Assembly (NCBI GenBank): GCA_963813065.1
Contig: CAWEXP010000002.1
Coordinates: 1 to 63,334, forward strand
Reading direction: 5' to 3'
Length of the DNA: 63,334 bases
From: Candidatus Kaiserbacteria bacterium
GTDB taxonomy: Bacteria; Patescibacteriota; Minisyncoccia; Phycocordibacterales; Phycocordibacteraceae
Below are positions 36,802 to 55,135 of this stretch, in pieces. Every line of letters starts with the position of its first letter. Position 1 is the first letter of the stretch. A model generated the notes under the pieces. The model was not told where the DNA came from. It was given only the letters and a program-made list of their open reading frames with translations, and made no database searches. The position numbers and the translations under genes were made by a program.

Positions 36802-38630
<1,829 letters not shown>

Positions 38631-38632
38631 TT

Positions 38633-39220: not shown

Positions 39221-39225
39221 TAGCC

Positions 39226-41166: not shown

Positions 41167-41257
41167 TGGCAGTGGTTCATTTTTGATAGGTAAATTGTAA
41201 CACGACTACCTATGCGAGTAGTCAAGAAGATATCCCCAAGTCCATGGACGAGTGTGT

Positions 41258-42244
41258 TTAGACCAATTGGGACGGCAGATTTCCTTGCACGAAGTCGCGG
41301 ATGATTCGGGTCTCGTGTGTGACGAAATGGTCAGGGCGCGCATTATGTAAATCATAGTGATAGTGCTCAAGCCATGTGGAGCCCACGGTGTGATGCAGAC
41401 GCGTGCGCAGACCCTCAACAAGCTCATCCTTCCCTATCGGATAGGACGATTGGTATCCGGCGAGAATAGCTCGGGCAGATGCTATGCCCGACGATTCCTG
41501 ATAGTCACTTGAGAAACTAATGTAGAGCAGAGCTCGTGCGAGCTCATAGGCTCGCGGTGCGATCTGTGCTTTTTCCCAATCGCACACACCAATAATTTCT
41601 CGCGTGCGGCCATTGATGAGCAGGTTGCCCGCGTGATAATCGCCGTGGATCAATGTATCGTTCGCGAGCGCGGTCTCGAGACGCACGTTCGGCAAGAGTT
41701 CGAGTTTGAGATTGATATATATGAGAAAATCGTCATCAATCGACTCTCGACGCGACAACGCGAGTATATGCTTTTTCTTTTCTTCAAGAATCTGGCGAAT
41801 GTCGGCTTTGGCCGTCAGCTTGAATTGCCGCTGAGTGAGTAGGTCTGGAATATCCTGACTCCCCGCACGATGAATGTCGCCTAAGAGTACTCCCATGCGT
41901 TGATAATCCTCGAGCGAGTACTGATGCGAACGATCGCTTTCGATAAAGGCGTATACCGAATACGCTTTGCCATCATAGATAACGAACGGCTCATGCGCGG
42001 ATGTTTCGAGCATGCAGATGGCGGGGATGCCGCGCTCGAACATGAGTCGTTCAACGACTGCCGTGACATTTAGTTTTTCAATAGCCTTCTCGCGAATCTG
42101 TTTGATGAAATATTTTCCAACCGTCGTGACGAGGATGTAGTTTTTATTCAACACTCCCTCGTCGCTCTCGACTATCGAGATGACGGCACCGAGATGGAAA
42201 TCACGACACAGCCTCTCCAAATGCGCAGGGTCCATGGGTGACAT
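41258..42244 (-). CDS. Aminoglycoside phosphotransferase / homoserine kinase type II-like protein
   Basis: GVLNKNY, YFIK, IHGDYHAGNLL, VCDWE. Confidence 0.85.
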   Translation of the reverse strand: MSPMDPAHLERLCRDFHLGAVISIVESDEGVLNKNYILVTTVGKYFIKQIREKAIEKLNVTAVVERLMFERGIPAICMLETSAHEPFVIYDGKAYSVYAFIESDRSHQYSLEDYQRMGVLLGDIHRAGSQDIPDLLTQRQFKLTAKADIRQILEEKKKHILALSRRESIDDDFLIYINLKLELLPNVRLETALANDTLIHGDYHAGNLLINGRTREIIGVCDWEKAQIAPRAYELARALLYISFSSDYQESSGIASARAILAGYQSSYPIGKDELVEGLRTRLHHTVGSTWLEHYHYDLHNARPDHFVTHETRIIRDFVQGNLPSQLV

Positions 42245-42255
42245 AATAGCAATAG

Positions 42256-42281
42256 AAAAGCCCCGGATTTCTCCGGGGCTA
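42256..42281 (-). terminator. Terminator after pncB
   Basis: AGCCCCGGA-loop-TCCGGGGCT with a T-tract on the minus strand. Confidence 0.65.
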
Positions 42282-42306
42282 AGCGATAGAAGCTACGCAA
42301 CTGAAC

Positions 42307-43689
42307 TTACACGATGACCTGCTGTGCAACACGGCCACTGTGACCGAAAATTCGCAGGTAACGTTCCACTTCGCCCTTGGGGCCAGTGGCCTTATTGATG
42401 TTGTTTGAGAGCTTCACCGCAGGACGACCATTCGCAGCAGATACTTTACAAACGAATGAATGACCCGTGAGAGCTTGATCCCACGTGATATCTAGGGGCT
42501 TGCCGTTCACAACCGCAAACTCATTCCCACGCGGATGACAGCCATCGAAGTCGTTCGATTCTTTGGTGCCCCAGCCATTTGAGATGCTGATGCGACCATT
42601 GAATTCCGTATCGTATTCGAGCATTGGCTCAACATCGAGTCCGTCAGACGGGATGTAGAGCTTCGTCTTCGGGTCGACGCGGTATTTGCTCAACCAACGC
42701 AAGTAACGATTCGTCTCATCAGCAACGATGCCCGAATCGCCGCGTTCGCCGCGCCACTCATGGGCGACACGCTCAGCGAGATCCTTTGGCATCCCCTCAT
42801 AGAATTGGGCGCTGCCGTAGGTGTCGGGGAGCGTGATGAGAAGAGCTCGCATTTTCGGACTTGCGTAGCACTCCTGCCATTTACGTAGTACATCGTACTG
42901 CGCCTCGCGCTTCTCCTCGTCTATATCCGCAAGTGCGGTCAAGACCATAGGAAGTTCGTGCGCGCTCGTGCCGATTGGGACGAGGTCTTGGTTGAATGCC
43001 AGCCAGGCGTTACTCGTGCCGGTGAACTGACTACCCATGACCTCCTTCGCCATTTCGACAACAAACTTCTGCCAGAGGAAACTGTGCCGTCGCCGCAAAC
43101 CGAAGTCGGCGAAACGGACCGTGCCACGTTCTTTGAGACGCTTGAACTTGCGATAGATTTTGTCCATCGCGCGTGCATAGAGAATGCGCAGTTCCGTCTC
43201 ACCTGCCTTGCCGGTTTCCGCCATACTGCGAAGCAGTTTGCGGTAGAGCAATTCGGAGAGAACGGCGAGAAAAACAATTTCCCACCACGTTACCAATTCC
43301 CACGGACCTTTTGACTCGAAACGATACTGTCTGCCGACACGCTCGAGTGTATACGGCGGGAGTTGAAGCCCGCCCAAGAACTCGAGGAAATCGCCTGACA
43401 ACATTGCTTCGCCATACACATCCATACCGCGCAGATACGAGAGGTCTGTACGGCGGAAACGAAGCGAACGCGCATGATCAAGTTCGGTACGCAATTCGTC
43501 CTCATCGACGATGTCGGCGACTGGAATATGCGTATGCCGATTGATGAAGCTGAAGGTAACGTCTACTCCCCGATAGTATCGGTAGATGAAATTACCCATC
43601 GTGAACTTGTAGAAGTCCGTGTCCATAAGAGATCGAATGATCCTGTCGGATGCATTCGGGCGTAGGACATTCCCCACGAAGTCGGTCAT
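42307..43689 (-). CDS. pncB: Nicotinate phosphoribosyltransferase
   Basis: DTDFYKFTM, ADFGLRRR, GTSN, GTSAHE, PDTYG, RGDSG, SDGLD, GWGT. Confidence 0.92.
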   Translation of the reverse strand: MTDFVGNVLRPNASDRIIRSLMDTDFYKFTMGNFIYRYYRGVDVTFSFINRHTHIPVADIVDEDELRTELDHARSLRFRRTDLSYLRGMDVYGEAMLSGDFLEFLGGLQLPPYTLERVGRQYRFESKGPWELVTWWEIVFLAVLSELLYRKLLRSMAETGKAGETELRILYARAMDKIYRKFKRLKERGTVRFADFGLRRRHSFLWQKFVVEMAKEVMGSQFTGTSNAWLAFNQDLVPIGTSAHELPMVLTALADIDEEKREAQYDVLRKWQECYASPKMRALLITLPDTYGSAQFYEGMPKDLAERVAHEWRGERGDSGIVADETNRYLRWLSKYRVDPKTKLYIPSDGLDVEPMLEYDTEFNGRISISNGWGTKESNDFDGCHPRGNEFAVVNGKPLDITWDQALTGHSFVCKVSAANGRPAVKLSNNINKATGPKGEVERYLRIFGHSGRVAQQVIV

Positions 43690-44432
43690 GAGTTCCTCCT
43701 GAAGAGTGAAGAGATGCTGAACGGTTTTTCGTAGCCGTAGAGCTTGTCACGCTTGATGATAGCGGCGACTGCGGGGGCAACGAGATGCTCCCAGGGTTGC
43801 CGCTTCGCTATTGCGTCGCGAATCGTGGTGCTCTCGCCCGAGAGATTCTCGGGGTCGAGCATTTCGTGATGCGGCGGCAATTTCTTGGGTGTGTAGCCTT
43901 CACGCGGGAGGATAAGGAAGCGCCCATGTTTCCATAGATCACTTCCCTGGTCCCAGTCCCGGATGCCATCGACATTGTCGGCGCCGATGACGTGCCAGAT
44001 TTCCGTCAGCACCGCAGGCGAGGACAGGACGATGAGATATTCCTCACGCCAGTCAGTCCTGGGATTGTTGGCCAGTTGCGCCTGCATCGAGTAGGTCGAG
44101 GTGTAGCCACAACCTGGATAATCCAGATCGTGCGTTTCCACCTTAATGTCATGCACCACGTCGCCGAGGCCCGCGAAGAGCATTTCTTTGCGCGCCGCGG
44201 CTGGAGCGACTTGTTGCTTAGCACTGTAGGGCCCGACAGGCCATATCACGATCTCGACCGGTAGCGATGGATCTTGTTGCAGAAGCGACGACTTAATCGG
44301 TTGCAGAACATCGGTGATAATTCTCCGATGATGCGGGGCGAATGGGTCGAAGCTACCAGCGAACACAAACGTTCTCTTGAAGAGCGTCGGCTTGTTAGCG
44401 TCAATCTTTTGAGCAACAGATGCGAGTTCCAT
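43686..44432 (-). CDS. nadD: NadD-like nicotinate-mononucleotide adenylyltransferase (variant signature)
   Basis: FAGSFDP followed by APHH in place of HxGH; IGADN; ESTTIR; stop overlaps the pncB start. Confidence 0.7.
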   Translation of the reverse strand: MELASVAQKIDANKPTLFKRTFVFAGSFDPFAPHHRRIITDVLQPIKSSLLQQDPSLPVEIVIWPVGPYSAKQQVAPAAARKEMLFAGLGDVVHDIKVETHDLDYPGCGYTSTYSMQAQLANNPRTDWREEYLIVLSSPAVLTEIWHVIGADNVDGIRDWDQGSDLWKHGRFLILPREGYTPKKLPPHHEMLDPENLSGESTTIRDAIAKRQPWEHLVAPAVAAIIKRDKLYGYEKPFSISSLFRRNS

Positions 44433-44592
44433 AGGAACCTCTCTTTCTAAGTTGCGTAGTGTAAAGAACGACTGTTTCCATCGAAACAGTGAGCTGGGCC
44501 GAGACTCATCGGCGCAATTCACTATTTCCGATCCACGGATCGGAAGAAGGGTGGCGAGGGCGCGAACGCCCTCGCCGATAAGAACAAAAAGA

Positions 44593-46557
44593 TCAGTTGA
44601 GTGTCGATATCTCGGCGATTGAATCCTCCATCCACTCGGGGGATTGCACCACCGGCAGTTGGAGCGCCCGTTCACGATCGAGATCAAGTCCACCCTGGTG
44701 CACCGTCTCCGGTGATTGAACCCATTTGTAGATTGAAGCAAAGAACAGGGTGAGAAACCTCTTCACCCACACCTTGAGTCGTGCCGAATCGGCGCCGATG
44801 GTGGCGAGACGTTCGTCGGGCCATGCAGAGCGTATGACTCGATAGAGATCCGCCGGCGCGAGCTTCTCTCCTACGAAATGGAGGAAGCATGCATCGAGGA
44901 CTTCATACGGCATGAGGTCGTCTTCGTCGAACTGGTCTTTTGCCAACTCGGCGGAGGCGCGTTGCGCGAGGAGCTCGGTGATTGGCCCGAGGGGATATTT
45001 CTTCCCGAAATGCGCAATCATAAGCGGCACAACCGTCTTCGGTGTATTCCCGATGAGCGAGTAGCCGCCCATGAGGTCACCGCCGATGGTGGTGTAGCCC
45101 ACGGCCTTTTCCGACATGTTGCCGGTCTGGAGCCAGAGGCCCTTGGTCGCATTCGAGAGATTCCACATCCGCATGCCGCGGATGCGCGCTTGTATATTGC
45201 CGAGTGTCGTGCGATCGCACGCGACGCCAGTAAGATGCATCAGCGCCGCAGTCTCTCGCTCGAACGCTTCTTGGATCGACTCTTCGTGGAATGCCACACC
45301 GAGTTCTTCCGCCAAGCTCCGCGCAATGTCTTTGGTGCCGCTTGAGTTGAACTCGGTCGGCATCGAGACACACGTGATGAACGAACGAATCGCCGCACTC
45401 TGCTCTGCCTCCGGCAAATAGGCGAAGCGCCGCTTGGCGTAGAGCCAGGCCTGCATGAGCGTGAGCGCAGAATCCTTGCCGCCCGAGAGGGCGATGAGGA
45501 TTCCTTTGAACACGTTCCCGCCACCAGTCTTCTCCATATATCCGCCGAGCCCCATCACTGCGGACTCGAAGAGGTCATCGAGTGCCGCATCTCGCGGGTC
45601 CGTTGCAGGAACTGCGAGCGGGTCCGGGAGAAATAAGTTCTGCGGAGCTTTTCGAACGGGCGCACGATTCTCCCCTACGGGGCCGTGCGAGATTGCGATG
45701 TACCGAGCCTGCGCATTAGGCTGGCTCGATTCGCGTAGCGTGCGCCAGGTCGTGTTCTCGTTGCGCAGACGAATCGTTTCGTCGAGATCGATATCGGCAT
45801 AGGCCACTCCCTCGCGCCAGCGCGGCGCTTCGAGAATTGGTTTACCATTCTGGTAGAAGAATCCACCGCCATCGAAGACGAGCGAGTCGTTGCCACCGAC
45901 TTGGTAAGCCGCGATCAGCACACATTCATTATCGGCCGAGCGTGTCCGGAGCATTTCGCGGCGTGTGTCGAGGACGCCCTGCCGGAATGGCGAAGCGTTG
46001 GTCACGACCTGCACGAGCGCGTTGCGCCGAGAGATGGGGCCGTTACCGACCCACGAGTCTTCGCAGACACACGTCGCCAAGGTGCCAAACGGACAATCGA
46101 AGATGAGATCACCGAAGGGGACGTGCGTGTCCCCGCATTCGACGAGCTCATACATCCCCGGCATCCCCGCTGAGAAGACACGCTTCTCATAGAAGACGCC
46201 GTAGGTCGGCAAGTGCTCCTTCGGTACGAAACCGAGGACGCGCCCGCGGCAGAGTACCGCATTGGCGTTGTATACGAGACCGTTTACCGCAACCGCCATA
46301 CCGAGGACGATAATCGCCGAGATATCTGCGGTTGCTTTCGCGAGCAGGAGCAATTGTTGCATCTGGCCCGAGACGAAGAGTCGCCACTGCAAGAGATCTT
46401 CGGCAGGATACCCGCCAATGACATTTTCTTGCGCGACAATCACGTCACATTTCGCACCAGCTAAGGTACGAATGCTCGAGAGGGTCTTCTGGGTATTGGT
46501 TGTGAATTGACCGACGGTGGTGTCCACCGAGATGACGCCCAAACGAATGGTTCGCAT
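44593..46557 (-). CDS. nadE: Glutamine-dependent NAD+ synthetase
   Basis: Nitrilase triad (QENVIGGYPAEDL, PKEHLP, VCEDSW); synthetase ALSGGKDS, NIQARIRG, TGNMSE..VGY. Confidence 0.95.
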   Translation of the reverse strand: MRTIRLGVISVDTTVGQFTTNTQKTLSSIRTLAGAKCDVIVAQENVIGGYPAEDLLQWRLFVSGQMQQLLLLAKATADISAIIVLGMAVAVNGLVYNANAVLCRGRVLGFVPKEHLPTYGVFYEKRVFSAGMPGMYELVECGDTHVPFGDLIFDCPFGTLATCVCEDSWVGNGPISRRNALVQVVTNASPFRQGVLDTRREMLRTRSADNECVLIAAYQVGGNDSLVFDGGGFFYQNGKPILEAPRWREGVAYADIDLDETIRLRNENTTWRTLRESSQPNAQARYIAISHGPVGENRAPVRKAPQNLFLPDPLAVPATDPRDAALDDLFESAVMGLGGYMEKTGGGNVFKGILIALSGGKDSALTLMQAWLYAKRRFAYLPEAEQSAAIRSFITCVSMPTEFNSSGTKDIARSLAEELGVAFHEESIQEAFERETAALMHLTGVACDRTTLGNIQARIRGMRMWNLSNATKGLWLQTGNMSEKAVGYTTIGGDLMGGYSLIGNTPKTVVPLMIAHFGKKYPLGPITELLAQRASAELAKDQFDEDDLMPYEVLDACFLHFVGEKLAPADLYRVIRSAWPDERLATIGADSARLKVWVKRFLTLFFASIYKWVQSPETVHQGGLDLDRERALQLPVVQSPEWMEDSIAEISTLN

Positions 46558-46575
46558 CGTTCTGTTCCCTTTCGT

Positions 46576-46650
46576 CAAAGAACTTTTTTCCTCAAGGAAC
46601 ACTCGACTCGTTCGAGCGCTCCAGAAAGGCGGGAATGCCGAAGCATTCCC
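46576..46650 (-). repeat. Structured intergenic leader, copy A (before nadE)
   Basis: Hairpin GGGAATGC-TTCG-GCATTCCC plus ~53 bp closely similar to 47684-47737. Confidence 0.75.
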
Positions 46651-46657
46651 GAAACAC

Positions 46658-47674
46658 TTATTTCGTTTCAGACCGATTCAAGAACAGGAGCTCGTCGGCG
46701 AGTTCGAGCATACGTTCACGTCCAATCAAGACCGACTGCCACTCCTGCGGGATGCCGCCGAGGCCGTAGCGTGCGCCGAGCAATCCGCCAGCAATCGCGC
46801 CATAGGTATCGGTATCGCCGCCGACCATGATTGCTTTGGTGAGACCATCGCGGAAATTGCCTGAGGTGAGTACCGCCCAGAGCGCGATACGCAAAGAGAG
46901 GATCACACTGCCGGTGTTGGGCCAGATTTCCTCTTCGCGCGGCTCGGAGGGTTCTATCGAGAGCACCGCCTCGAAACCCGGGCGCAGAGGGCCGTCCGGT
47001 GTCTTCTTCTCGAACTCGAGCAAGTCGCCCATCTTCCAACGCGTGGCGAACCACGCATCGACCGGTGATAAACCGGCAAGAAGATGATTGAGCATGACGG
47101 AGTACGCCATGCACGCCGCTTGCGCAGAGGGGTGCACATGCGTGATGCATGAGTGCCGTCGCGCAATGTCGACTATCTTGTCCAAGTCGCCGTAGTACCG
47201 CACGGGGACGGACGAACAGCACATCAAGCTCCCATTGCTCGGTATCACCGGCACGCGACCTTCGCGGAATACGATGAACGAATCGGCGTAGGTCGGCGCA
47301 CGAAGAGAAGCACGTAATGTCCCTCCTGAACCGTAGGCCTTCCCATTGGTCAAGAGCGAGCGACGCGGTTCGCCATTGTGGCCGTGAATGAATCCGCGTT
47401 TGCGGTGGTACATATCAACCGGGTCAAACTCGGGCGTCGACGCCAGACTCTCGGCGCCCCCGGCAGTCAATTCGGAATCATCGGTCGGTTGGCCAGCAGT
47501 GACGTACCGTTTCCATTTGAACGGCTCGAGATAATCGAAGGCGACGAGGCCACCACGGAATGCCATATTGGCCTCGATGGCGACACGGTGACGCGTCTCG
47601 TAGGGGGCGCCCAGCACATCGCCAGTGAGCGCGCCAACGAGCACGCCGCGAGCACTATTTTCAGTCAGAACCAT
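46658..47674 (-). CDS. ADP-ribosylglycohydrolase (DraG/ARH family)
   Basis: GDVLG, PTDDS, SNGSLM, ITH, GGDTDTYGAIAGGLLGA. Confidence 0.92.
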   Translation of the reverse strand: MVLTENSARGVLVGALTGDVLGAPYETRHRVAIEANMAFRGGLVAFDYLEPFKWKRYVTAGQPTDDSELTAGGAESLASTPEFDPVDMYHRKRGFIHGHNGEPRRSLLTNGKAYGSGGTLRASLRAPTYADSFIVFREGRVPVIPSNGSLMCCSSVPVRYYGDLDKIVDIARRHSCITHVHPSAQAACMAYSVMLNHLLAGLSPVDAWFATRWKMGDLLEFEKKTPDGPLRPGFEAVLSIEPSEPREEEIWPNTGSVILSLRIALWAVLTSGNFRDGLTKAIMVGGDTDTYGAIAGGLLGARYGLGGIPQEWQSVLIGRERMLELADELLFLNRSETK

Positions 47675-47683
47675 ATGTTTCTC

Positions 47684-47759
47684 CAAAGAACTGTTTTCCT
47701 TTAAGGACGTTCGACTCATTCGAGCGCCCTAGAAAAGGAGGTTTCCCTAAGGAAACCTC
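47684..47759 (-). repeat. Structured intergenic leader, copy B (before the ADP-ribosylglycohydrolase)
   Basis: Hairpin GAGGTTTCC-TTAG-GGAAACCTC plus ~54 bp closely similar to 46576-46628. Confidence 0.75.
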
Positions 47760-47787
47760 GAGTTGAAAGATCTAAGAACCCAGCGGC

Positions 47788-48600
47788 TTACGGCGTACCG
47801 AAGCCACCCATTGCAGTCTGACTGAACGCTTTGCCGCCCTGGCTCGCCCGCACCGCGGACTGCGAGAGCATGCCGAACGCTTTCCGGATGCCGGACGGCG
47901 AACTGTCGGGCGTGAGAATCCAGTCGTCCTGGATGCCCATGCTCTTGAATACCGCCGTGAAGTCGGTACCCTTGCGGATGATCCTTCCTTGGGCGTCTTT
48001 CTGGCTGTCGTCGATGCCCATACCGCTGATGATATGAGACTCGCTCATGAGCAGATCTCGCACGACCTTCTCGACGTCGGTCTCGTCGCACTTGTACGAG
48101 CCCTCGTCATGACCGTCGGTAATGATGCACGAGACGCCGCGACATGGAATACCGTTGTCGCGGAACTCTTGAGCCTTCGCCGCCACCGTCGCCAGGAACA
48201 AAACACCTTGGTCGTAGAGCGGCGTACCGCCGTTCGGATTATAATTCTGCGGCGTCATCCGCGGAGCGTCCTTGATGCGCACATACGGACAGAGGATCGT
48301 TCCGTTTAGGTAAGGGACATGGACGAGGATACTGTCTCGCTGTTTGGTCGCGAGCAGAGCATCCAGAATCCCGTTATAACCATCGCGGATATGTTGCGAA
48401 TTATTCCCGAACCTGATGGACGTAGAGTCGTCGACCAGGAGTGAGAACAACGTAACTTCACTGGACTGCACGTCTTCGGGCGAGATACCGAGTCCCGCCT
48501 GAATCTGCGCACCAAGATCTTCGACATCGACGACCGCCTGCGCTTGCGCACCGAGTGCACCGTTGGTGAAGAGACCTTGCACTGTTTGGGAGTTACCCAT
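47788..48600 (-). CDS. von Willebrand factor A (TerY-like) domain protein
   Basis: MIDAS motif DDSTS, GGTPLYD, ITDG. Confidence 0.8.
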   Translation of the reverse strand: MGNSQTVQGLFTNGALGAQAQAVVDVEDLGAQIQAGLGISPEDVQSSEVTLFSLLVDDSTSIRFGNNSQHIRDGYNGILDALLATKQRDSILVHVPYLNGTILCPYVRIKDAPRMTPQNYNPNGGTPLYDQGVLFLATVAAKAQEFRDNGIPCRGVSCIITDGHDEGSYKCDETDVEKVVRDLLMSESHIISGMGIDDSQKDAQGRIIRKGTDFTAVFKSMGIQDDWILTPDSSPSGIRKAFGMLSQSAVRASQGGKAFSQTAMGGFGTP

Positions 48601-48674
48601 GAACGTAATCCTTTCTAAGAGAAGTTGCAGGCGGCCGACCATCGGCCGCCTGCGTACACACGTGAGACACAAAC

Positions 48675-49730
48675 TTAGAGCTCAATGCCGGGCCATTCCT
48701 GGATCGGCGTCGTGCTCTTGACCACATGCATGCCGGCGTTTGCGAAGCTCGCGAGTGCCGCCTCCGCTTGTGGCGTGTAGTCGGCATAGAAACCGCCCTT
48801 GCCGTCGGGAACCGTCACCGAAGACATGCAGTCTTCCATGAGGTACACCTTCTCGGCAAGCTTCGGATCCTTCGCACTGATTTCCGCAAGCAGATCTTCG
48901 ATGGTGCTCTTGTCGCAGTGACTCGCCGCTTCTCCCTCGATGATGAGGTAGTCGGCCTCTAGAAGGTCGTTGATGAACCGCACGTTCTTCTGCGCGAGCG
49001 GCTTACCGTCCCAGCGGGTCAAGACTTCCGGCCGCAGGACCGAGTAGTTCTCGGTAAGCGGATGTCCGCCCTTGACCTCGCAGTCGGTCTGCGCCCCGCG
49101 AGCGAACGCGTGGAACATCCGTGCTTCGTGGAGGATGCCGACTAGTGCGTGACCCGCAGAGCCCAAGATGCAGTGAGGAGGCCAAACATAGAGCTTGTAT
49201 TTGCCCTCACGTTCGAGTTCACGGCAGTAGTGGAGCAGGTGTTGGCCGAGCCACAGGTAGTCGATGCCAAGCGCCGAGGCGACCAACATCGAAACTTGAA
49301 CGCGTCGCCGTTCTACATCTGCGACTGACACTTCTGTGTAGGCCGGCACCGGCGTCCCGTCGTCGTAGACCAAGAAGGCTGAGAAGAAGATCTGGTACGC
49401 GAAGTGCGTATCAAACGTAGCTTTGGTCTTGGTGATGATGCCCAGATTGCGATAGATGAACTCGGCGCTTCTGCGCGAGTCGTCAATCGCACCTTCGCCT
49501 GAACGTCCACCGACGTAGAGCGCACCACGCTTCATACAGAAGTCTTTCTGTCGATCGATGCTCAGCAGATAGACTTTCTTGCGGTCAGTCGAAGAGGCTT
49601 TGAGACCAAACCGCTTCCTCCAATCGAGAGCGGCGGCGAACAACGCTGCCTGGTTGGGATCGTAGTCCCAGTCTCCCGCATGCTTCGGATCGAAGAACGT
49701 GGGGAGTGGTAGTGCAGTCTTCGTAGTCAT
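48675..49730 (-). CDS. Nicotinamidase-like cysteine hydrolase (isochorismatase family)
   Basis: IDRQKDF, GALYV, DTH, WPPHC..GSAGH, VKG, ASHC. Confidence 0.85.
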   Translation of the reverse strand: MTTKTALPLPTFFDPKHAGDWDYDPNQAALFAAALDWRKRFGLKASSTDRKKVYLLSIDRQKDFCMKRGALYVGGRSGEGAIDDSRRSAEFIYRNLGIITKTKATFDTHFAYQIFFSAFLVYDDGTPVPAYTEVSVADVERRRVQVSMLVASALGIDYLWLGQHLLHYCRELEREGKYKLYVWPPHCILGSAGHALVGILHEARMFHAFARGAQTDCEVKGGHPLTENYSVLRPEVLTRWDGKPLAQKNVRFINDLLEADYLIIEGEAASHCDKSTIEDLLAEISAKDPKLAEKVYLMEDCMSSVTVPDGKGGFYADYTPQAEAALASFANAGMHVVKSTTPIQEWPGIEL

Positions 49731-49763
49731 GGTCTTTCCTTCCATGGTCGTGACCAGGATTGG

Positions 49764-51647
49764 TCATTTAAGAACGAGACGCCAGATATCGTGTTTACCG
49801 GCTACGTACAATCCCTTGTTGCCAAGGAATATGCGTGAGTCGGTATCCACGAACTGTGCGGTCGCGGGAAATTCTTTCACGACATTCAATTGAGTGCCGC
49901 CGAGTTCCACTCGGACGACACCATCGTCAGTCGCAGAAAGTAACAATCCGCCTGCCGCACACTTTCCTCGGATACTTCCGAGCCAACTGCCGTCTCCGGC
50001 GGTTGTCTCATGGCTCCCGAGATACACACCGTTGCCGTCGAGCACGTGGCAACGGTTTATTGTTTTGCCACCTTCACTCGTGGCGACAAAAAACCAAATT
50101 CGATCACTTCCGAAACAACACGTCGCGTCGACGAGTTGGCCGCGAATCGGCGGGAGAGTAACCGAATCATTGAGACCGGGATGGTTCGTATCGAACGCGA
50201 AGAAGACCGAAATCTCTCCTGCCCGATAGAAACCGAAGCCATGCTTCTCGCCGACCCAAAAGAGAGTCTGCGAGTTCAGCACGTCTCCCCAGCGCTCGGC
50301 ATAGTCAAAGCCGAGTTTGCCCACGCGCCACAAACCACCTCCGCGCGCGAAGAACACATTGGTACTATTCGCGTCGAAGATTGGTAAGAGCCCGCGGACA
50401 TCGGTCGAGAGTCGCTGGGTACCACCAGCATCGAACTGCACCGTCTGATCGGCACGCCCCAGGAGCGTTTTCGTACCGCTGATGCGGTAGCGAAGTTGCG
50501 CATCGAGAGCGCCCGCGATGATAGTGGCACCGCTCTCGCGCTTATACGAACCGTTGTCGTGATAGAGGTAACGAATCGTATCGCCTTCGAGAACTGCATA
50601 GAGAATCACACCGTCGGTATAGAACTCCTTGAAGGCGCTCACGCCTCCCGTGTGGATTTCCTTATGCATGGGCGGAGTGATCGTGGTGCACGAGGGACAC
50701 GAGGTCCGTGCATGCACCGCACCACATTTCGTGCAAGTGGTGAAGCGAAGATTTTCGATGAGTGCACGCGGTGGAATGCCGCGCTCATCCTTCTCGAACG
50801 TCCTTCGGAAGTGTTCCAGAAGAGTATCCGGCAATATATGATACGGCCGTGACGACTTCGGGCATTTCACTTCCGGATTGAAGATCGTGACTCGCTTGAG
50901 CGAGCGTCCGTCATACGGAATCCGCTTCTTCGGGTCCTTGGGGTTATGAACACCACCGTAGGGTCCGACCAGAAGTAGATTCTGCATGAGCATAACGTTG
51001 AACGCATACCAGTCAGAATTCGCGGTATGCGGTCTCACGAGAGTTGGCGTCTTCGCATTCGGATCGCAATTGAGCGGATCCACGAACTTCATCGTGAATG
51101 TCCGCGATAGGTACGGTCCGAACCCACCGCTATCGGCATCGATGATCCACGCCTTCCGGTCCTTTATAAGAACGTTCAGGTCGTTGAAGTCACTGATGAC
51201 GAAGTGCGATGAGTGGCGATGAGCCTCTTCGACGGTCTTGTGCAGGTCCACCAGCGTCTCGACGACGAAATCGTCGGGAATGCCGGTGTCGCGAAAGCTT
51301 TTCTCGCCATAGAGGTACAACACTTCACCCGAAACGAGTTCCATGCGATACCCGGCGATATTTCCTTTTGCGTCGAGCACCAAATCACGCGGGGATACCA
51401 CGCGAGCAGGAAGCCCGCGGGGAAAGTCGCGCAATTTCTTCTGATGTTCGGCGATGCGCTCTTTCGCCGCGGCGCGCGCCGCAATATCTTCCGGCCGAGT
51501 GCCGGCAAAATCTGCGTGCGTGGGCGGCTTGAAGATTTTGATGGCGAAACCGCCATCCTTGAAGATGTCTGCTTCGCCACCCTTCCCGACTGCGTCGTCG
51601 GGCCGTAGCCGAAGACGTTCTCCGTTTTCGAGGAAGTAATCAGGCAT
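49764..51647 (-). CDS. Ser/Thr protein kinase-like protein with Zn-ribbon and beta-rich C-terminal domain
   Basis: GKGGEADIF, AIKIF, ISDFNDLNVL, IIDADS; CTKC..CPSC. Confidence 0.85.
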   Translation of the reverse strand: MPDYFLENGERLRLRPDDAVGKGGEADIFKDGGFAIKIFKPPTHADFAGTRPEDIAARAAAKERIAEHQKKLRDFPRGLPARVVSPRDLVLDAKGNIAGYRMELVSGEVLYLYGEKSFRDTGIPDDFVVETLVDLHKTVEEAHRHSSHFVISDFNDLNVLIKDRKAWIIDADSGGFGPYLSRTFTMKFVDPLNCDPNAKTPTLVRPHTANSDWYAFNVMLMQNLLLVGPYGGVHNPKDPKKRIPYDGRSLKRVTIFNPEVKCPKSSRPYHILPDTLLEHFRRTFEKDERGIPPRALIENLRFTTCTKCGAVHARTSCPSCTTITPPMHKEIHTGGVSAFKEFYTDGVILYAVLEGDTIRYLYHDNGSYKRESGATIIAGALDAQLRYRISGTKTLLGRADQTVQFDAGGTQRLSTDVRGLLPIFDANSTNVFFARGGGLWRVGKLGFDYAERWGDVLNSQTLFWVGEKHGFGFYRAGEISVFFAFDTNHPGLNDSVTLPPIRGQLVDATCCFGSDRIWFFVATSEGGKTINRCHVLDGNGVYLGSHETTAGDGSWLGSIRGKCAAGGLLLSATDDGVVRVELGGTQLNVVKEFPATAQFVDTDSRIFLGNKGLYVAGKHDIWRLVLK

Positions 51648-52490
51648 TGGCAACTCCTTCAGTTTTCGGCGTGCGCCGAATGGCAACAAGTGTGGTGTCG
51701 TCCCTGAAGAGTCCGCGCTTGATGCGGCCCTGCTCCACCGTCTCGCAATTACTCATCGCGAGTCTGCGACGTATGCCGTCTTCGTTCCGGAAGAAAAAAT
51801 CATTTTCCCGAGAACTGACTGAGTGGACCGACCGGCTTGTGGCCGATCGGCATCGGGAGCGTCTCTGCCTGGATAAGGTCAGAAACGCCATCCGTACCAA
51901 TAAGGATTGACTGCACGTCTTTCGTATCGCGCACGAGGTTCGCGACAAACGAAGGCTTCTCGCCAGACTTGCGCGGCGCCAGGTTGTAGCCGAGATAGGG
52001 CGGCTCGTTCCCTGGGTAAGGACCCAAGGTAGTTACCGCACCATTCACCGCATACACACCATCGCCACACGAGAAAATGAGCTGTGGTGTGCGGCGTCAC
52101 TATGACGCCGATCGTCGAGAAGAAGAATTGCTCCTCCATAACGAAACCAGTATCGCCTCCGACGCTTTTCGCAATGAGTGAGATGCGGTCCAGAGGAACC
52201 TCTGTAAGCCATTCGAGGAATGCGCTAGCCGAGGTTTCTTGGATGCCGAGATTTTGAACGACCGGCACGTTGAGGAACCTCGCCGCTTCGTTTACGATGA
52301 TCCGTGCCCCGAGTGTCGCACCCACTTCGCTGTGCGAATGGCTCGAACAGCCGTCCGTTACCACAGCGACGAGGTGCGTAGGTGAGGCATGCCACCAAAG
52401 TGAGTCTTGATTGTTTTTCCAACCGGACTCGCCCGGCATGATGTGATCCATTCCCGGCACCGAGGCGCCGGCAATTTGGAATCCATCCAT
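51640..52490 (-). CDS. PP2C-like protein phosphatase (frameshifts near 52080 and 51825)
   Basis: NNQD, VTDGCS, CGDG, IGTDG and DDTT across three frames; its stop overlaps the kinase start (ATGCCTGA). Confidence 0.8.
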
Positions 52491-52614
52491 AACCTTCTCC
52501 TTTTCTAACTTTGCAATGGGTATGGGTCCTCTCAAAGAACCTCTCGACCCAAGGTCAAGATTCCCTACTTTTAACAAATGGATGACGTTTCGTCAATCTC
52601 ATGCTCTAGGCTAC

Positions 52615-52641
52615 AAAAAACCGAGGCAGTGCCTCGGTTTT
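52615..52641 (-). terminator. Intrinsic terminator after the Nudix gene
   Basis: AAAA-CCGAGGC-ACT-GCCTCGG-TTTTTT. Confidence 0.7.
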
Positions 52642-52662
52642 ACACACGTTAAGCGTCTTGTT

Positions 52663-53115
52663 TTAGAGGATGCCGCGCAGGGTGAACCAGAGCTTCCAGA
52701 CCGGCTCGATGTTCAGATCCTTCAGTTGTTCGCGCGTGAACCAGCCCCACCCCTTGGCCTCGTGCGGGTCGACGCGTACCTTCGCACGATCGACCCGGGC
52801 CTGATAGAGGTACCAATGGTGTACATCGCCATGCCGGCACGTATTCCACGGCACTTCGGCTTCCGCCAAGAGCACCACGTCGAAGATCTCGGTCCCGAGC
52901 TCTTCGCGGCCTTCGCGATGCACGGCGGTCAGCGGGTCTTCCCCTTCGTCCACATGGCCCGCCATCCCGGCGAAACCAAGGGGCGGGAACTTGCGATCGA
53001 GGAGCAGAAATTCTCCGGTCGCAGGGTCTTCGATAATCGCGCCGGCAGAGTAGTGCATCGGGCGACCGTCGCTGGCAGTCCCCATCTTTGGTTTGGGGTC
53101 GTGGGTATCCGTCAT
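52663..53115 (-). CDS. Nudix hydrolase
   Basis: AGHVDEGEDPLTAVHREGREELG; AAGGAAG RBS; TTGACA-17 nt-TAATTT upstream. Confidence 0.9.
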   Translation of the reverse strand: MTDTHDPKPKMGTASDGRPMHYSAGAIIEDPATGEFLLLDRKFPPLGFAGMAGHVDEGEDPLTAVHREGREELGTEIFDVVLLAEAEVPWNTCRHGDVHHWYLYQARVDRAKVRVDPHEAKGWGWFTREQLKDLNIEPVWKLWFTLRGIL

Positions 53116-53189
53116 GGTGCTTCCTTTCGTTTCTGGATTGAAATTACTATGCCCAATCCTCATTGTCAAAAACCGTAGCAAATCGAATG

Positions 53190-53229
53190 CGCGAGAGACG
53201 GGACTTGAACCCGCAACCTCCGCCGTGAC
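53190..53229 (-). pseudogene. Orphan 3' half of a tRNA-Asp (from anticodon GTC to discriminator)
   Basis: GTC-AC-GGCGG-AGGTT-GCGGG-TTCAAGT-CCCGT-CTCTCGC-G. Confidence 0.85.
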
Positions 53230-53258
53230 CAACGTAACTTAGGTTTTCTTAACTAATG

Positions 53259-53330
53259 CGCGGGTGACGAGTGCTGACCTCGCGACCTTCGCCGTGACAG
53301 GGCGACGCTCTACCGTTGAGCTACACCCGC
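53259..53330 (-). tRNA. tRNA-Asp(GTC) with non-canonical T-loop
   Basis: Acceptor GCGGGTG/CACCCGC, G73, anticodon arm TCGCC-CTGTCAC-GGCGA, T-arm GCGAG-GTCAGCA-CTCGT. Confidence 0.85.
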
Positions 53331-53331
53331 A

Positions 53332-54012
53332 TTAATTGTCAAGTCGTAAGACTTTCAGCGCTCGTTCTAATTTTCTACGTTTCCGCGGCAGATATAGATT
53401 CGAGGCAAAGCCAGTATGATACATCAGATGATAAAGCGCAACGCTGTCTCTATGGCTCAAGACCAACTCAAATCCTCTTGTTTTTCGCTTGATTGATCCG
53501 CCCCGGACTCCGTGAAGTGTTAGTGCGTGATGTAGGGATTCTAAAAACCCTAGCGAACCGCTCGTAAAGAGGCTCATGAGTATCCAACGTTTTCCCTTTC
53601 GATCGGCAAATTGTAATTTGTTGAAGTACGCGCATCCATCACCATCAAAGTAACCGCGCACGAAATCTCCAAGAAACTGAGCCGGAACTTTAGGAAAACG
53701 CAAGGTATTACTCTTATGTTGAGTAAAGCCCAGTCGAGCTAAATCAGCAAACCATTTTTTGCTTCCGATTTGTAAGCGGTATGCGGTCTTTCGGTTGTCG
53801 CCGCGTTCTCGCGCCGCGATGTGATGACTCGATGTTGTGGCCCGCTGTATGACTTCGAGCACTATTCGATCGGTACTGGTGAACTCAATAAAACATCCGC
53901 CACGACGGTTCTTTAACATTGAGCCGTCCGCGGCGAAGAATCCAAGTACGTACGCCATTTCGGGTGACCATTTCTTGAAGAAGTCCCGATTGAGTGTGCA
54001 ACGCTGTGACAT
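53332..54012 (-). CDS. Double-motif LAGLIDADG homing endonuclease (intact)
   Basis: MAYVLGFFAADGS and FVRGYFDGDGC; stop lies 1 nt before tRNA-Asp. Confidence 0.92.
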   Translation of the reverse strand: MSQRCTLNRDFFKKWSPEMAYVLGFFAADGSMLKNRRGGCFIEFTSTDRIVLEVIQRATTSSHHIAARERGDNRKTAYRLQIGSKKWFADLARLGFTQHKSNTLRFPKVPAQFLGDFVRGYFDGDGCAYFNKLQFADRKGKRWILMSLFTSGSLGFLESLHHALTLHGVRGGSIKRKTRGFELVLSHRDSVALYHLMYHTGFASNLYLPRKRRKLERALKVLRLDN

Positions 54013-54025
54013 AGCTCAATTCTAA

Positions 54026-54063
54026 GACAGGACTTAACTCTAACCAAACTTTACCCACAACCC
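54026..54063 (-). pseudogene. Decayed 5' half of a tRNA-Asp
   Basis: AGTTTGGTTAGAG (D-loop) and C-CT-GTC (anticodon) lie at exact tRNA spacing (positions 14-36); the stems are degenerate. Confidence 0.5.
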
Positions 54064-54071
54064 TACCTTGT

Positions 54072-54148
54072 TGGTGCCGGCACCAGGAGTTGCACCTGGG
54101 ACCTCAGCTTTATGAATGCTGTGCTCTAACTAACTGAGCTATGCCGGC
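54072..54148 (-). tRNA. tRNA-Met(CAT), elongator type
   Basis: Acceptor GCCGGCA/TGCCGGC (paired G1-C72), loop TTCATAA, encoded CCA, T-loop TGCAACT. Ile2 identity is not excluded. Confidence 0.85.
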
Positions 54149-54188
54149 GAAGTGAGGCCCTTGCACAGTAGCAGATTGTACGGGTAGT

Positions 54189-55133: not shown

Positions 55134-55135
55134 CG

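Follow-up and report, generated by a model that had tools for sequence, protein, structure and literature searches.

A nicotinamidase gene within a conserved PP2C–kinase–vWA cassette at a predicted NAD+ salvage locus of a Candidatus Kaiserbacteria bacterium

We found that the locus at 42307–53115 on the minus strand of the window (the whole stretch of DNA analyzed here, 63,334 nucleotides) contains a conserved unit of four genes, encoding in order a PP2C phosphatase, a kinase with zinc ribbon and beta-propeller, a long nicotinamidase and a vWA protein. The nicotinamidase is an obligate internal member of this cassette, not a mere pathway step beside a signaling triad. As a whole the locus is most likely, judging from its encoded enzymes, a Preiss–Handler NAD+ salvage operon, leading from nicotinamide through nicotinate, NaMN and NaAD to NAD+ via PncA, PncB, NadD and NadE. 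The literature that we searched held no description of the cassette, which is apparently a widely conserved and so far undescribed arrangement. The explanation that we favor, with our confidence evenly split for and against, is that of a salvage operon having its nicotinamidase in a cassette that would be gated by the kinase, PP2C and vWA proteins and, in relatives, inducible by ADP-ribose.

Layout of the locus and its salvage enzymes

Nine co-oriented genes were present, for a Nudix hydrolase, PP2C, kinase, nicotinamidase, vWA protein, ADP-ribosylglycohydrolase (ARH), NadE, a NadD-like protein and PncB, and every one of these identities, as given in the original prediction, was borne out. Profile searches directly supported the Nudix, PP2C, ARH, NadE and PncB assignments as well as that of the NadD-like protein (the latter below cut-off), while the kinase, vWA protein and nicotinamidase had no library match and were identified by structure, motifs and hhalign. 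The upstream boundary of the cluster is a complete tRNA-Asp (53258–53330, minus strand; ARAGORN and Rfam), followed after about 25 nt by the previously noticed orphan 3' half of a tRNA-Asp (about 53190–53233, minus strand), as seen by alignment to the full copy. Intrinsic terminators, foreseen at both ends, were located between Nudix and PP2C (ACCGAGGCACUGCCUCGGUUUUUUG, 52612..52641, minus strand, −21.7 kcal/mol, z-score −3.6) and after PncB, closing the operon (GCCCCGGAGAAAUCCGGGGCUUUUCU, 42259..42280, minus strand, z-score −4.2). Fold analysis gave a further hairpin resembling a terminator, with a U-rich tail, between the vWA and ARH genes (47738..47759, minus strand), and the PncA–vWA spacer contained a G+C-rich 12-bp hairpin without a U tract (48627..48653, minus strand, centroid −27.1 kcal/mol, z-score −3.4). 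Hairpins hence split the locus into three parts, being Nudix, the cassette, and ARH-nadE-nadD-pncB. Both of the anticipated gene overlaps were also seen, with the PP2C stop (51640) overlapping the kinase ATG (51647) and the nadD stop and pncB start sharing ATGA at 43686–43689. The base composition of the locus equaled that of its flanks, and a prs gene for PRPP synthetase was absent from the nine-gene cluster, as had been stated.

With regards to NAD+ synthesis, profile searches and conserved residues showed PncB, NadD-like protein, NadE and nicotinamidase all together in the window. PncB (42307..43689, minus strand) is a nicotinate phosphoribosyltransferase matching PF17767 (NAPRTase_N), PF04095 (NAPRTase) and NF003704 (E 1e-103), and NadE (44593..46557, minus strand; probable start MRTIRLG at 46557) is a glutamine-dependent NAD+ synthetase matching PF00795 (CN_hydrolase), PF02540 (NAD_synthase) and NF010588 (E 4e-86). 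The divergent NadD-like nicotinate/nicotinamide mononucleotide adenylyltransferase (43686..44432, minus strand, 248 aa) matched TIGR00482 with an E-value of 4.8e-14, under the curated cut-off, and had 47% identity to its orthologue in a related locus, L008. Its translation contains S-T-T-I-R, which we take to be the NadD motif ISSTxxR.

Two further enzymes would handle ADP-ribose, these being the ARH and possibly the Nudix hydrolase. The ARH (ARH/DraG family; 46658..47719, minus strand) matched PF03747 over the full model length (E 9e-54) and showed partial matches to Tri1 and DraG. The Nudix hydrolase (52663..53115, minus strand, 150 aa) matched PF00293 (E 3.5e-16), keeps its Nudix box, GHVDEGEDPLTAVHREGREELG, intact and starts at an ATG behind the ribosome-binding site AAAGGAAG, with the mechanical ORF extending to a TTG at 53232; its best solved relatives were the NADH pyrophosphatase NUDT12 and Ap4A hydrolases. 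We rejected this protein as a candidate NrtR, as it has neither a winged-helix domain nor similarity to NrtR. The proposal that ADP-ribose reversal genes form part of the unit was accurate for the window but did not extend to its relatives, with an ARH beside the cassette being rare (7 of about 82 loci) and a Nudix of the window type found in 1 of 80 surveyed loci (L008, same position). One other locus, L107, had an unclassified Nudix between nrtR and PP2C.

Conservation and spread of the four-gene cassette

Using the kinase as seed in GTDB species loci with enough flank, the cassette order was kept in 57 of 62 loci. The reciprocal test in metagenomes, seeded with the nicotinamidase, found the kinase upstream in 36 of 38 cases, the vWA gene downstream in 53 of 58 and the complete set of three partners in 24 of 28. 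With the same order recurring in dozens of species, the arrangement is far beyond chance. A triad physically linked to a separate NAD+ pathway, as first suggested, was therefore correct as to the link, but the real unit is the four-gene cassette including the nicotinamidase. Similarly, co-conservation of triad and NAD genes held across phyla for the nicotinamidase but not for pncB, nadD and nadE, which adjoin the cassette mainly in CPR; none of the 13 cyanobacterial and myxobacterial loci examined had salvage genes near it. Downstream of the cassette, CPR relatives carried nadD, frequently as a fusion with what looks like an NAD kinase domain, together with Nudix, pncB, prs and nadE.

The cassette occurs in CPR, cyanobacteria, myxobacteria and other hosts, and its spread is patchy and cross-phylum (407 of 185,579 species genomes); the nearest relatives of the window cassette were Paceibacteria MAGs. 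Its proteins evolve slowly, with 44–64% identity across phyla and a mean column identity of 60–74%. In Paceibacterota the entire block sits inside the S10 ribosomal-protein operon, which it breaks up. A complete cassette lacking nrtR was also carried by 15 large contigs called viral by IMG/VR; the cassette was not found on plasmids, nor as a full unit in cultured-phage records. Two huge-phage genomes, LR745208 and LR756511, had a relative of the kinase domain and a PncA-like gene 5–10 kb apart.

Properties of the cassette proteins

The PP2C_2-family Ser/Thr phosphatase (51640..52490, minus strand; PF13672) was split over three reading frames as assembled, a point missed by the original prediction, which took it as one gene as written. 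Three-frame translation traced the frame breaks to single extra bases at 52082 and 51810, and removal of both gave a single ORF of 282 aa that matched PF13672 over residues 25–210 (E 1.5e-11). The extra bases were missing in independent public contigs, one contig per site, from run X2 at 52082 and run X1 at 51810, and the gene was intact in relatives. These near-identical contigs come from two other studies; an intact PP2C allele therefore exists, and errors in assembly may account for the frameshifts. Comparison of the window with the near-identical public contigs gave no further indel in the covered parts of 38000–57900.

The kinase (49764..51647, minus strand) gave no match in the Pfam search and was recognized by motifs, AlphaFold2 (AF2) modeling and Foldseek as a Ser/Thr-type protein kinase domain (about residues 1–300) followed by a CxxC..CPxC zinc ribbon (about 305–320) and a C-terminal beta-propeller (about 330–627). 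The model (pLDDT 89.8) matched eukaryotic-type protein kinase domains and beta-propellers, including LRRK2 (kinase and WD40), CTR1, Akt1 and RIP2K for the former and peptidase or Kelch propellers for the latter. Among 30 kinase relatives the Gly-loop, Lys, D-x4-N, IDAD and ribbon motifs were invariant, with the ribbon cysteines C305, C308, C317 and C320 lying immediately C-terminal of the kinase domain. The family comprises 817 clusters at 50% identity and was almost never seen outside the cassette context in the surveyed loci.

The nicotinamidase-family amidase (PncA-like; 48675..49730, minus strand) is a long form of about 350 aa. No Pfam model matched it, and NF008623 did so at only E 0.001 over 36 residues, not reaching the curated-family threshold. 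Its catalytic and metal residues nevertheless aligned to those of classical PncA, and hhalign against a classical PncA gave a probability of 87% (E 4e-6), with profile matches to the Leishmania and M. tuberculosis nicotinamidases. The catalytic Asp/Lys/Cys and the metal ligands (D59, D107-x-H109, WPxH186C, K220, C272) were invariant among 32 members including that of the window, about one third of the close homologues had a precomputed PF00857 assignment and others were named ‘nicotinamidase’ by NCBI. The long form appears to be a self-sufficient salvage enzyme, occurring without the triad as pncB-nadE-nrtR-pncA in Anaeromyxobacter and, in 2 of 28 metagenome loci, as nrtR-pncA. A second, classical short PncA was encoded directly after the vWA gene in at least four CPR loci, which speaks against a plain housekeeping role for the enzyme within the cassette; it may act on a different substrate or serve in sensing.

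The divergent vWA-domain protein (47788..48600, minus strand, 270 aa) had no Pfam, PADLOC or PDB sequence match, and Pfam and PADLOC vWA and TerY profiles reached a best E-value of about 0.01 on this protein and 36 relatives. Its AF2 model (pLDDT 87) gave, among the Foldseek matches listed, almost only vWA or integrin I domains (E about 1e-6). The MIDAS was complete and invariant in the family (D57-x-S59-x-S61, T126, D162), and the Ser/Gln-rich C-terminal tail, SQSAxRASQ..FS.TA.GGFG, was also conserved.

A predicted NrtR-type operator in related loci

Of about 82 related loci, 48 had an nrtR gene (Nudix plus WHD_NrtR) next to the cassette, and the palindrome TAGTGT-N7-ACACTA, at no more than one mismatch, was present in 55 related loci. 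It lay nearly always some 30–390 nt upstream of PP2C, often doubled, and also before nrtR and occasionally before pncB, kinase or pncA. The published NrtR operator is a 21-bp palindrome with the core GT-N7-AC, from which ADP-ribose frees NrtR in vitro (PMC2330246); our palindrome matches this core and is a predicted NrtR-type operator. Location of the cassette behind nrtR and such an operator in relatives is consistent with a response to the products of NAD+ cleavage. The whole 63 kb window had no NrtR homologue and no NrtR-type operator, its sole match with two mismatches being at chance level inside another gene, and ADP-ribose induction can therefore not be claimed for this genome.

Comparison with known systems

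NrtR-regulated salvage operons have been described as nrtR-pncA-pncB-nadD-nadE in Clostridium acetobutylicum and pncB-nadD-nrtR-nadE in Nostoc/Anabaena (Rodionov et al. 2008, PMC2330246). They share PncA, PncB, NadD and NadE with the locus studied here (and Prs with some of its relatives), as well as, in the relatives of the window only, the regulator family and the 21-bp palindrome with its GT-N7-AC core. Their pncA is, however, short, free-standing and without signaling proteins, whereas that of the cassette is the 350-aa form between PP2C–kinase upstream and vWA downstream.

The TerY-P triad consists of the vWA protein TerY, a PP2C and a Ser/Thr kinase with a C-terminal zinc ribbon (Anantharaman et al. 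2012, as cited in PMC11090510). A switching role that depends on metal or phosphorylation has been proposed for it, and TerY-P-like modules are reported to be stand-alone anti-phage systems (Gao et al. 2020; PMC11090510). The likeness expected at the outset held in part, in that the three domain types occur in a single operon with a zinc ribbon after the kinase domain, while the vWA protein, for all its modeled vWA fold and MIDAS, was recognized by no vWA or TerY profile of Pfam or PADLOC beyond E about 0.01. The PADLOC TerY-P models, however, gave no match among the window proteins (E ≤ 0.1), 37 vWA relatives or 30 kinase relatives, the latter having only weak matches to the MkoA, PD-T4-6 and PglW kinase models, so that ‘TerY-P’ is here an analogy and not a membership. 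In contrast to TerY-P, the cassette has a vWA protein too divergent for every Pfam vWA model, an extra beta-propeller in the kinase, a metabolic enzyme between kinase and vWA (PP2C-kinase-X-vWA) and no link to tellurite-resistance or restriction genes.

Systems built around ARG, with Nudix-HTH regulators, phosphatases and vWA chaperones, have been predicted to work against ADP-ribosylation by viruses (Iyer et al. 2022, PMC9503650, section 3.8). These similarly combine in one neighborhood an NrtR-like Nudix-HTH regulator, an ARH/ARG without partner ADP-ribosyltransferase, a phosphatase and a vWA ‘chaperone’, with ADP-ribose as the proposed inducer. Their core is ARG and their phosphatases belong to the rhodanese-phosphatase, calcineurin, HD or HAD types, whereas the cassette has an optional ARH, a PP2C phosphatase with a kinase as its partner and, as core enzyme, a nicotinamidase, absent from PMC9503650. 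The phage NAD+ reconstitution pathways NARP1, NARP2 and NARP3 (10.1101/2024.02.11.579819; PMC13464706) also rebuild NAD+ from cleavage products or precursors, and the cassette too is found on large predicted viral contigs. Those pathways differ in using Adps+Namat, Nampt+Nmnat and PnuC+NadR-like enzymes, with neither a kinase/phosphatase/vWA layer nor the deamidated route; Pfam, NCBIfam and PHROGs searches did not find their defining enzymes among the nine window proteins, PncB weakly matching a Nampt PHROG (E 3e-7).

Proposed function and alternatives

Our favored explanation, that of a salvage operon with a gated nicotinamidase, builds upon computed gene identities, synteny, the operator, and intact catalytic and MIDAS residues, from which we infer ADP-ribose induction, the direction of phosphorylation and gating of the enzyme. 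In most relatives, NrtR operators would cover the cassette promoter until ADP-ribose frees NrtR from the DNA, and the cassette should thus switch on upon cleavage of NAD+ to ADP-ribose and nicotinamide. The kinase/PP2C pair may then set the phosphorylation state of the vWA protein, the nicotinamidase or NrtR, and the vWA protein may use its metal site to attach to the nicotinamidase and gate it, perhaps by supplying the enzyme with metal; metallochaperone-like proteins can reportedly reactivate metal-depleted nicotinamidases (PMC6941528). Nicotinamide would in this manner be committed to resynthesis solely when the propeller reads a second signal, at the protein level. The present genome lacks the nrtR/operator layer, and its assembled PP2C carries frameshifts.

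The cassette may have a part in defence or counter-defence. One bold extension, which we hold as a doubtful though serious possibility, is that the cassette forms a distinct, widespread module, an NrtR/ADP-ribose-induced and phosphorylation-gated valve on nicotinamide, used by cells (CPR, cyanobacteria, myxobacteria) and huge phages in conflicts over the NAD+ pool. If so, the valve would determine whether nicotinamide is cleared and recycled, and with it both the recovery of NAD+ and the degree to which NAD+-consuming enzymes are inhibited by their product. It is unlikely, in our estimate, that the locus is instead an outright conflict system, in which a TerY-P-like triad senses ADP-ribosylation, or an assault by phages or toxins on the NAD+ pool, and confers immunity by having NAD+ rebuilt and ADP-ribose removed, or in viruses serves as counter-defence against NAD+-depleting systems. 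The vWA, PP2C and kinase–zinc-ribbon composition is that published for TerY-P (PMC11090510), phages do rebuild NAD+ by NARP1–3, ARG-centred systems are predicted to act against viral ADP-ribosylation (PMC9503650), and the patchy cross-phylum spread, the huge-phage kinase relative with its PncA-like gene and the Paceibacterota block, which breaks the S10 operon like an inserted island, point the same way; the 15 putatively viral IMG/VR contigs fit a conflict role at least as well as they fit our main explanation. Yet PADLOC models matched only at the level of generic kinase similarity, a toxic effector was absent, and slow protein evolution with rigid gene order is unlike most defence loci. Absence from plasmids and, as a full unit, from cultured-phage records, a base composition equal to the flanks and the rarity of ARH also argue against it.

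We consider it quite unlikely that the triad is a general signaling module with targets elsewhere (cell-envelope or stress proteins, or NrtR), sharing an operon with an unregulated nicotinamidase through a common transcriptional condition. NrtR is, going by a paper title, reportedly under post-translational modification control, and the long nicotinamidase does occur without the triad in some genomes. Operons of vWA, kinase and PP2C genes are furthermore known from unrelated contexts, such as DRA0331–0334 of Deinococcus (bioRxiv 10.64898/2026.01.23.701218). The nicotinamidase gene is, however, located between kinase and vWA in about 90% of loci in many phyla, a linkage much tighter than mere co-regulation requires, and the kinase family is almost confined to the cassette. 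Very unlikely, finally, is a decaying cassette in this genome, with PP2C a pseudogene, NrtR control lost and only plain salvage enzymes in use. The two frame changes in PP2C and the absence of nrtR and operator from the 63 kb agree with decay, as does the window nicotinamidase, which deviates at 13 of 163 near-invariant positions where the median for the family is 3. Against it are the near-identical public contig without the extra base at each PP2C site and the lack of other indels in the covered parts of 38000–57900. Moreover, the kinase, vWA protein and nicotinamidase of the window all keep every invariant residue, with deviation counts within the range of their families.

Identification of the genes in the locus

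All long open reading frames between 42307 and 53232 of the window were found on the minus strand, which bears out the predicted co-orientation of the nine genes. Library searches identified six of the encoded proteins, these being, first in transcription order, a Nudix hydrolase (PF00293, E 3.5e-16), and further a PP2C_2 phosphatase (PF13672), an ADP-ribosylglycohydrolase (ARH; PF03747, E 9e-54, over the full model length), a glutamine-dependent NAD+ synthetase (NadE; PF00795 and PF02540, and NF010588 with E 4e-86), a divergent NadD-like adenylyltransferase (TIGR00482, E 4.8e-14, under the curated cut-off) and PncB (PF17767 and PF04095, and NF003704 with E 1e-103). The kinase (49764–51647), the nicotinamidase-like protein (48675–49730) and the vWA protein (47788–48600) had no significant match in Pfam, NCBIfam, PHROGs, PADLOC or the PDB sequence set. 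Since sequence searches of solved structures, using either single proteins or profiles, also gave nothing usable for the kinase or the vWA protein, structure prediction was needed for these two. The kinase was thereby identified from an AlphaFold2 model together with invariant motifs, the vWA protein from an AlphaFold2 model and its invariant MIDAS, and the nicotinamidase from invariant residues and profile alignment. With the library matches and these tests of the three unrecognised proteins, all nine identities proposed in the original prediction stand.

The kinase family was uniform, with proteins of ~620 aa, and comprised 1020 matches and 817 clusters (50% identity, E ≤ 1e-30). Among 30 relatives, the GxGGEA loop, Lys37, Lys40, His145, the motifs D153-F-N-D-L-N158 and I-D170-A-D172-S and four cysteines (C305, C308, C317 and C320) were all invariant. 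In a structure search with the model (pLDDT 89.8), residues 1–300 matched eukaryotic-type kinase domains (CTR1, Akt1, RIP2K and IRAK4) and the last 300 residues matched beta-propellers (peptidase propellers, Kelch and WD40), the best overall match being the kinase and WD40 half of LRRK2. The matches of the vWA model (pLDDT 87) were nearly all to vWA and integrin I domains (E ~1e-6, probability 1.0), and the MIDAS was invariant in the family (D57-x-S59-x-S61, T126 and D162). The C-terminal tail of the vWA protein (window residues ~240–270 in A2, the alignment of the family) was Ser/Gln-rich and strongly conserved, with the pattern F-SQSAxRASQ-x4-FS-x-TA-x-GGFG and invariant Ser and Gln; the kinase or its propeller may use this motif for phosphorylation or docking.

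All residues defining a nicotinamidase were retained in the nicotinamidase-like protein, including the catalytic D59, K220 and C272 and the metal ligands D107-x-H109 and WPxH186C. Its profile aligned to classical PncA with 87% probability, spanning the WPPHC, KG, YS and xxxCV motifs, and also to the Leishmania and M. tuberculosis enzymes, while many close homologues of the in-cassette enzyme are annotated with PF00857 or named 'nicotinamidase' by NCBI. The long enzyme can probably act as a salvage nicotinamidase without the triad of PP2C, kinase and vWA protein, as suggested by two nrtR-pncA loci free of the triad and by an Anaeromyxobacter contig with the order pncB-nadE-nrtR-pncA(long), likewise without it. 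In at least four loci of CPR (Patescibacteria) bacteria, the vWA gene was directly followed by the gene for another PncA, of the classical short form (PF00857, E 3e-30), which cuts against a plain salvage reading. Some in-cassette nicotinamidases (proteins of 578–586 aa) also had an N-terminal extension of ~230 aa without Pfam match; the extension, the second PncA or both were seen in the loci L013 (11899–13641 and 14718–15398), L038, L040, L060 and L067, and for P0266.

Organization of the locus and frameshifts in the PP2C gene

The Nudix gene most likely starts at 53115, downstream of a AAAGGAAG ribosome-binding site, and is separated from PP2C by a classical terminator, ACCGAGGCACUGCCUCGGUUUUUUG. 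PP2C runs 8 nt into the kinase gene, its stop overlapping the kinase ATG, and a spacer of 33 nt leads from the kinase gene to the pncA ATG at 49730. The 74-nt spacer between pncA and the vWA gene contains a G+C hairpin of 12 bp that lacks a U tract, the vWA gene is followed by a terminator-like hairpin, nadD and pncB overlap in a shared ATGA, and a strong terminator at 42259–42280 ends the operon. Both stop/start overlaps and the terminators at the two ends agreed with what had been described earlier. Judging from the terminator and hairpin signals, the locus is arranged as Nudix / PP2C-kinase-PncA-vWA / ARH-nadE-nadD-pncB. An Rfam scan of the locus gave two tRNAs only, with no riboswitch.

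The identity of the PP2C gene was upheld by the PF13672 match, but a defect had been missed in the original prediction, for as assembled the gene spans three frames, split by single extra bases at 51810 and 52082, neither of which is within a long homopolymer. A public contig from a soil run has one base fewer at 51810 and another, from a lake run, has one base fewer at 52082, both being otherwise identical to the window, and an intact PP2C allele thus exists in nature. Deletion of both bases gives a single PP2C of 282 aa, with the PF13672 match covering residues 25–210. No other indels between the window and the public contigs were seen in the covered parts of 38000–57900, and none of the further public runs covers 51810 or 52082. 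The extra bases may have arisen in assembly or may reflect a genuine inactivation in this strain. A more general decay of the proteins in the window was also considered but found no support, with deviation counts falling inside the family range.

Conservation of the PP2C-kinase-nicotinamidase-vWA cassette

Scanning one genome per GTDB species, we found the kinase in 407 species, the hosts being many CPR/Patescibacteria together with cyanobacteria, Myxococcota (Archangium and Sorangium), Planctomycetota, Acidobacteriota and Gemmatimonadota. PP2C, kinase, long nicotinamidase and vWA occurred together in 57 of the 62 kinase-seeded loci having enough flank (±10 kb), with that order and adjacency in nearly all of the 57. 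When the test was reversed and the nicotinamidase served as seed in metagenome contigs, 36 of 38 loci had the kinase directly upstream, 53 of 58 had the vWA gene downstream, and 24 of 28 had all three partners. Because the synteny holds both ways, the nicotinamidase belongs to the conserved unit, which is a tetrad rather than a triad beside a pathway. The link between triad and NAD+ salvage that had been postulated is accordingly conserved across phyla, but with the nicotinamidase inside the unit. We regard the association as genuine, broadly distributed and open to testing; its function is inferred.

The further salvage genes behaved differently in the survey, within and outside CPR, to which the original prediction had pointed. 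Although nicotinamidase and triad were co-conserved, pncB was found nearby in none of 13 cyanobacterial and myxobacterial loci, as compared to 13 of 19 CPR loci and five of seven metagenome-assembled genomes (MAGs) labelled Gammaproteobacteria with CPR-like loci. Salvage genes beside the cassette are a CPR trait. CPR relatives add nadD (often as part of a fusion), a further Nudix gene, prs and nadE, so that the PRPP synthetase missing from the window cluster is present in some of them. ARH was found in seven of ~82 loci, in some cyanobacteria between PP2C and kinase.

Several CPR-type loci (L013, L016, L029, L031, L033 and L038, e.g. L038 14725–16107) had, directly downstream of the cassette, one ~460-aa protein in which NadD is joined to a C-terminal domain that appears to be NAD kinase-like, in some followed by Nudix and prs. 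Some loci from MAGs labelled 'uncultured Gammaproteobacteria', Aenigmatarchaeota or Woesearchaeota were arranged as in Patescibacteria MAGs, with nrtR-cassette-nadD/nadK-Nudix-pncB-prs-nadE (L016, L031, L035, L036, L038, L047 and L081; L026, L077 and L078), and these taxonomic labels may be unreliable. On a Paceibacterota contig (L002/L009, 7300–20300), the whole block of PP2C-kinase-PncA-vWA-ARH-NadE-PncB with a NadM-like gene and nrtR lay between rplB and rpsS, within an S10 ribosomal-protein operon that is conserved in other respects, a position suggesting that the block is mobile as a whole.

Fifteen large contigs called viral in IMG/VR (L087–L101, 42–545 kb) also had the complete cassette, though without nrtR, near genes for HNH, RtcB, DHH, SNF2 and vault-like proteins, which are not diagnostic of a virus. 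Two huge phages in GenBank, LR745208.1 (L103) and LR756511.1 (L104), had a relative of the kinase domain and a shorter PncA-like gene 5–10 kb apart, and neither PP2C nor vWA was detected in them. The cassette was absent from plasmids, and an origin from plasmids or cultured phages was rejected, as only kinase-domain-level matches of 24–26% identity were obtained.

Predicted NrtR operators upstream of the cassette in relatives

The gene for NrtR, an ADP-ribose-sensing repressor (Nudix and WHD_NrtR), adjoined the cassette in 48 of ~82 loci. A palindrome search 5′ of PP2C yielded TAGTGT-N7-ACACTA, which with at most one mismatch was present in 55 loci, nearly always ~30–390 nt before PP2C and often in two copies ~25 nt apart. 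The same palindrome was found ahead of nrtR and occasionally ahead of pncB, kinase or pncA where these start units of their own. Known NrtR sites are 21-bp palindromes with the core GT-N7-AC, from which NrtR is freed by ADP-ribose (Rodionov et al., PMC2330246). Considering the nrtR adjacency and an operator fitting the published sites, we infer that the cassette of the relatives belongs to the NrtR regulon. Neither nrtR nor the operator was found in the 63 kb of the window, and both are present in L008, the nearest relative sharing the window-type Nudix. That Nudix could be ruled out as a truncated NrtR, having no similarity to NrtR. The window copy is hence atypical, with no NrtR layer and a PP2C that is frameshifted as assembled.

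A possible switch on nicotinamide recycling

NAD+-consuming enzymes release ADP-ribose and nicotinamide, NAD+ is rebuilt from nicotinamide by PncA, PncB, NadD and NadE, protein-bound ADP-ribose is stripped off by ARH, and NrtR is a sensor of ADP-ribose. Starting from the observed gene identities, synteny, operator and residue conservation, we propose that the cassette could be a two-layer switch on nicotinamide recycling, a reading to which we give an even chance. ADP-ribose would de-repress the cassette, the kinase/PP2C pair would set the phosphorylation state of the vWA protein, the nicotinamidase or NrtR, and the vWA MIDAS would bind and gate the metal-dependent nicotinamidase, or load metal into it. 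Such a metal-centred mechanism is plausible because TerY-P triads (vWA, PP2C and kinase) have been proposed to be metal-sensing phosphorylation switches (PMC11090510) and because metallochaperone-like proteins are reported to reactivate metal-depleted nicotinamidases (PMC6941528).

A role in conflict, be it defence or viral counter-defence, seems unlikely to us even though the distribution is patchy, the cassette occurs on predicted viral contigs and the triad resembles TerY-P, for the cassette has no effector, evolves slowly and keeps a rigid gene order. The earlier TerY-P reading holds as regards this resemblance, but PADLOC gave no match. Should the cassette instead be a signalling module with targets elsewhere, a nicotinamidase gene inside the triad in ~90% of the loci would be hard to reconcile with it, and we regard this as improbable. 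Local decay of the cassette in the window genome, which would account for the PP2C frameshifts and the loss of the NrtR layer, is the least probable explanation in our view, considering that an intact PP2C allele exists and that the invariant residues are preserved.

NAD+ depletion and ADP-ribosylation are now central to phage–bacterium conflict, NAD+ supply is a key dependency of reduced-genome CPR bacteria, and bacterial nicotinamidase is usually regarded as a salvage enzyme that is simple and constitutively active. Here the nicotinamidase is set between a vWA protein and a kinase found in >400 species-level genomes, with a predicted ADP-ribose-responsive operator in relatives. If this arrangement is functional, nicotinamide recycling would be controlled at its first step, both transcriptionally and post-translationally. 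The two-layer switch would thereby give a concrete, testable role to one of many orphan vWA/PP2C/kinase triads, add four genes of previously unknown role to the NrtR regulon, and point to a possible fourth, deamidated pathway for rebuilding NAD+ on large contigs predicted to be viral. NrtR-controlled pncA-pncB-nadD-nadE operons (PMC2330246) and vWA/PP2C/kinase triads (PMC11090510) are already known, and ARG-centred systems with Nudix regulators and vWA chaperones were already predicted in a 2022 survey of NAD+/ADP-ribose systems that mentions neither PP2C nor nicotinamidase (PMC9503650). In the literature searched, de Souza & Aravind 2012 (Mol Biosyst) excepted, we found no description of PP2C, kinase-ZnR-propeller, long nicotinamidase and vWA united under an NrtR operator.

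Flanking regions

The wider window is ordinary chromosome, encoding RecG, FtsH, BipA and IMPDH. On the 5′ side of the locus are tRNA-Met, a LAGLIDADG open reading frame and a complete tRNA-Asp, and the orphan tRNA-Asp 3′ half noted earlier was indeed present, ~25 nt beyond the complete tRNA-Asp. These elements are grouped within 53190–54148 (minus strand), with the homing-endonuclease-like LAGLIDADG frame (54012–53332) stopping 1 nt ahead of the complete tRNA-Asp. The T-loop of the latter is GTCAGCA, which we take to be unusual, and that of the orphan half is TTCAAGT, presumably canonical. The region resembles the remains of a former insertion or recombination event at the tRNA. An island bounded by tRNA-Asp repeats was rejected, as neither the tRNA nor its half recurs as a direct repeat elsewhere in 38–58 kb, the orphan half is directly beside the full tRNA and the base composition is flat.

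Directly 3′ of the operon terminator is a gene for a phosphotransferase of the APH/homoserine-kinase family (41258–42244, minus strand), and the same gene adjoins pncB in the public contig L001. Next to it (minus strand, within 39226–42244) is encoded a 646-aa surface protein with Ice-binding-like, SpaA-like and DUF11/DUF7507 domains, the end of which was read as an LPNTG-type sorting signal with a membrane anchor.
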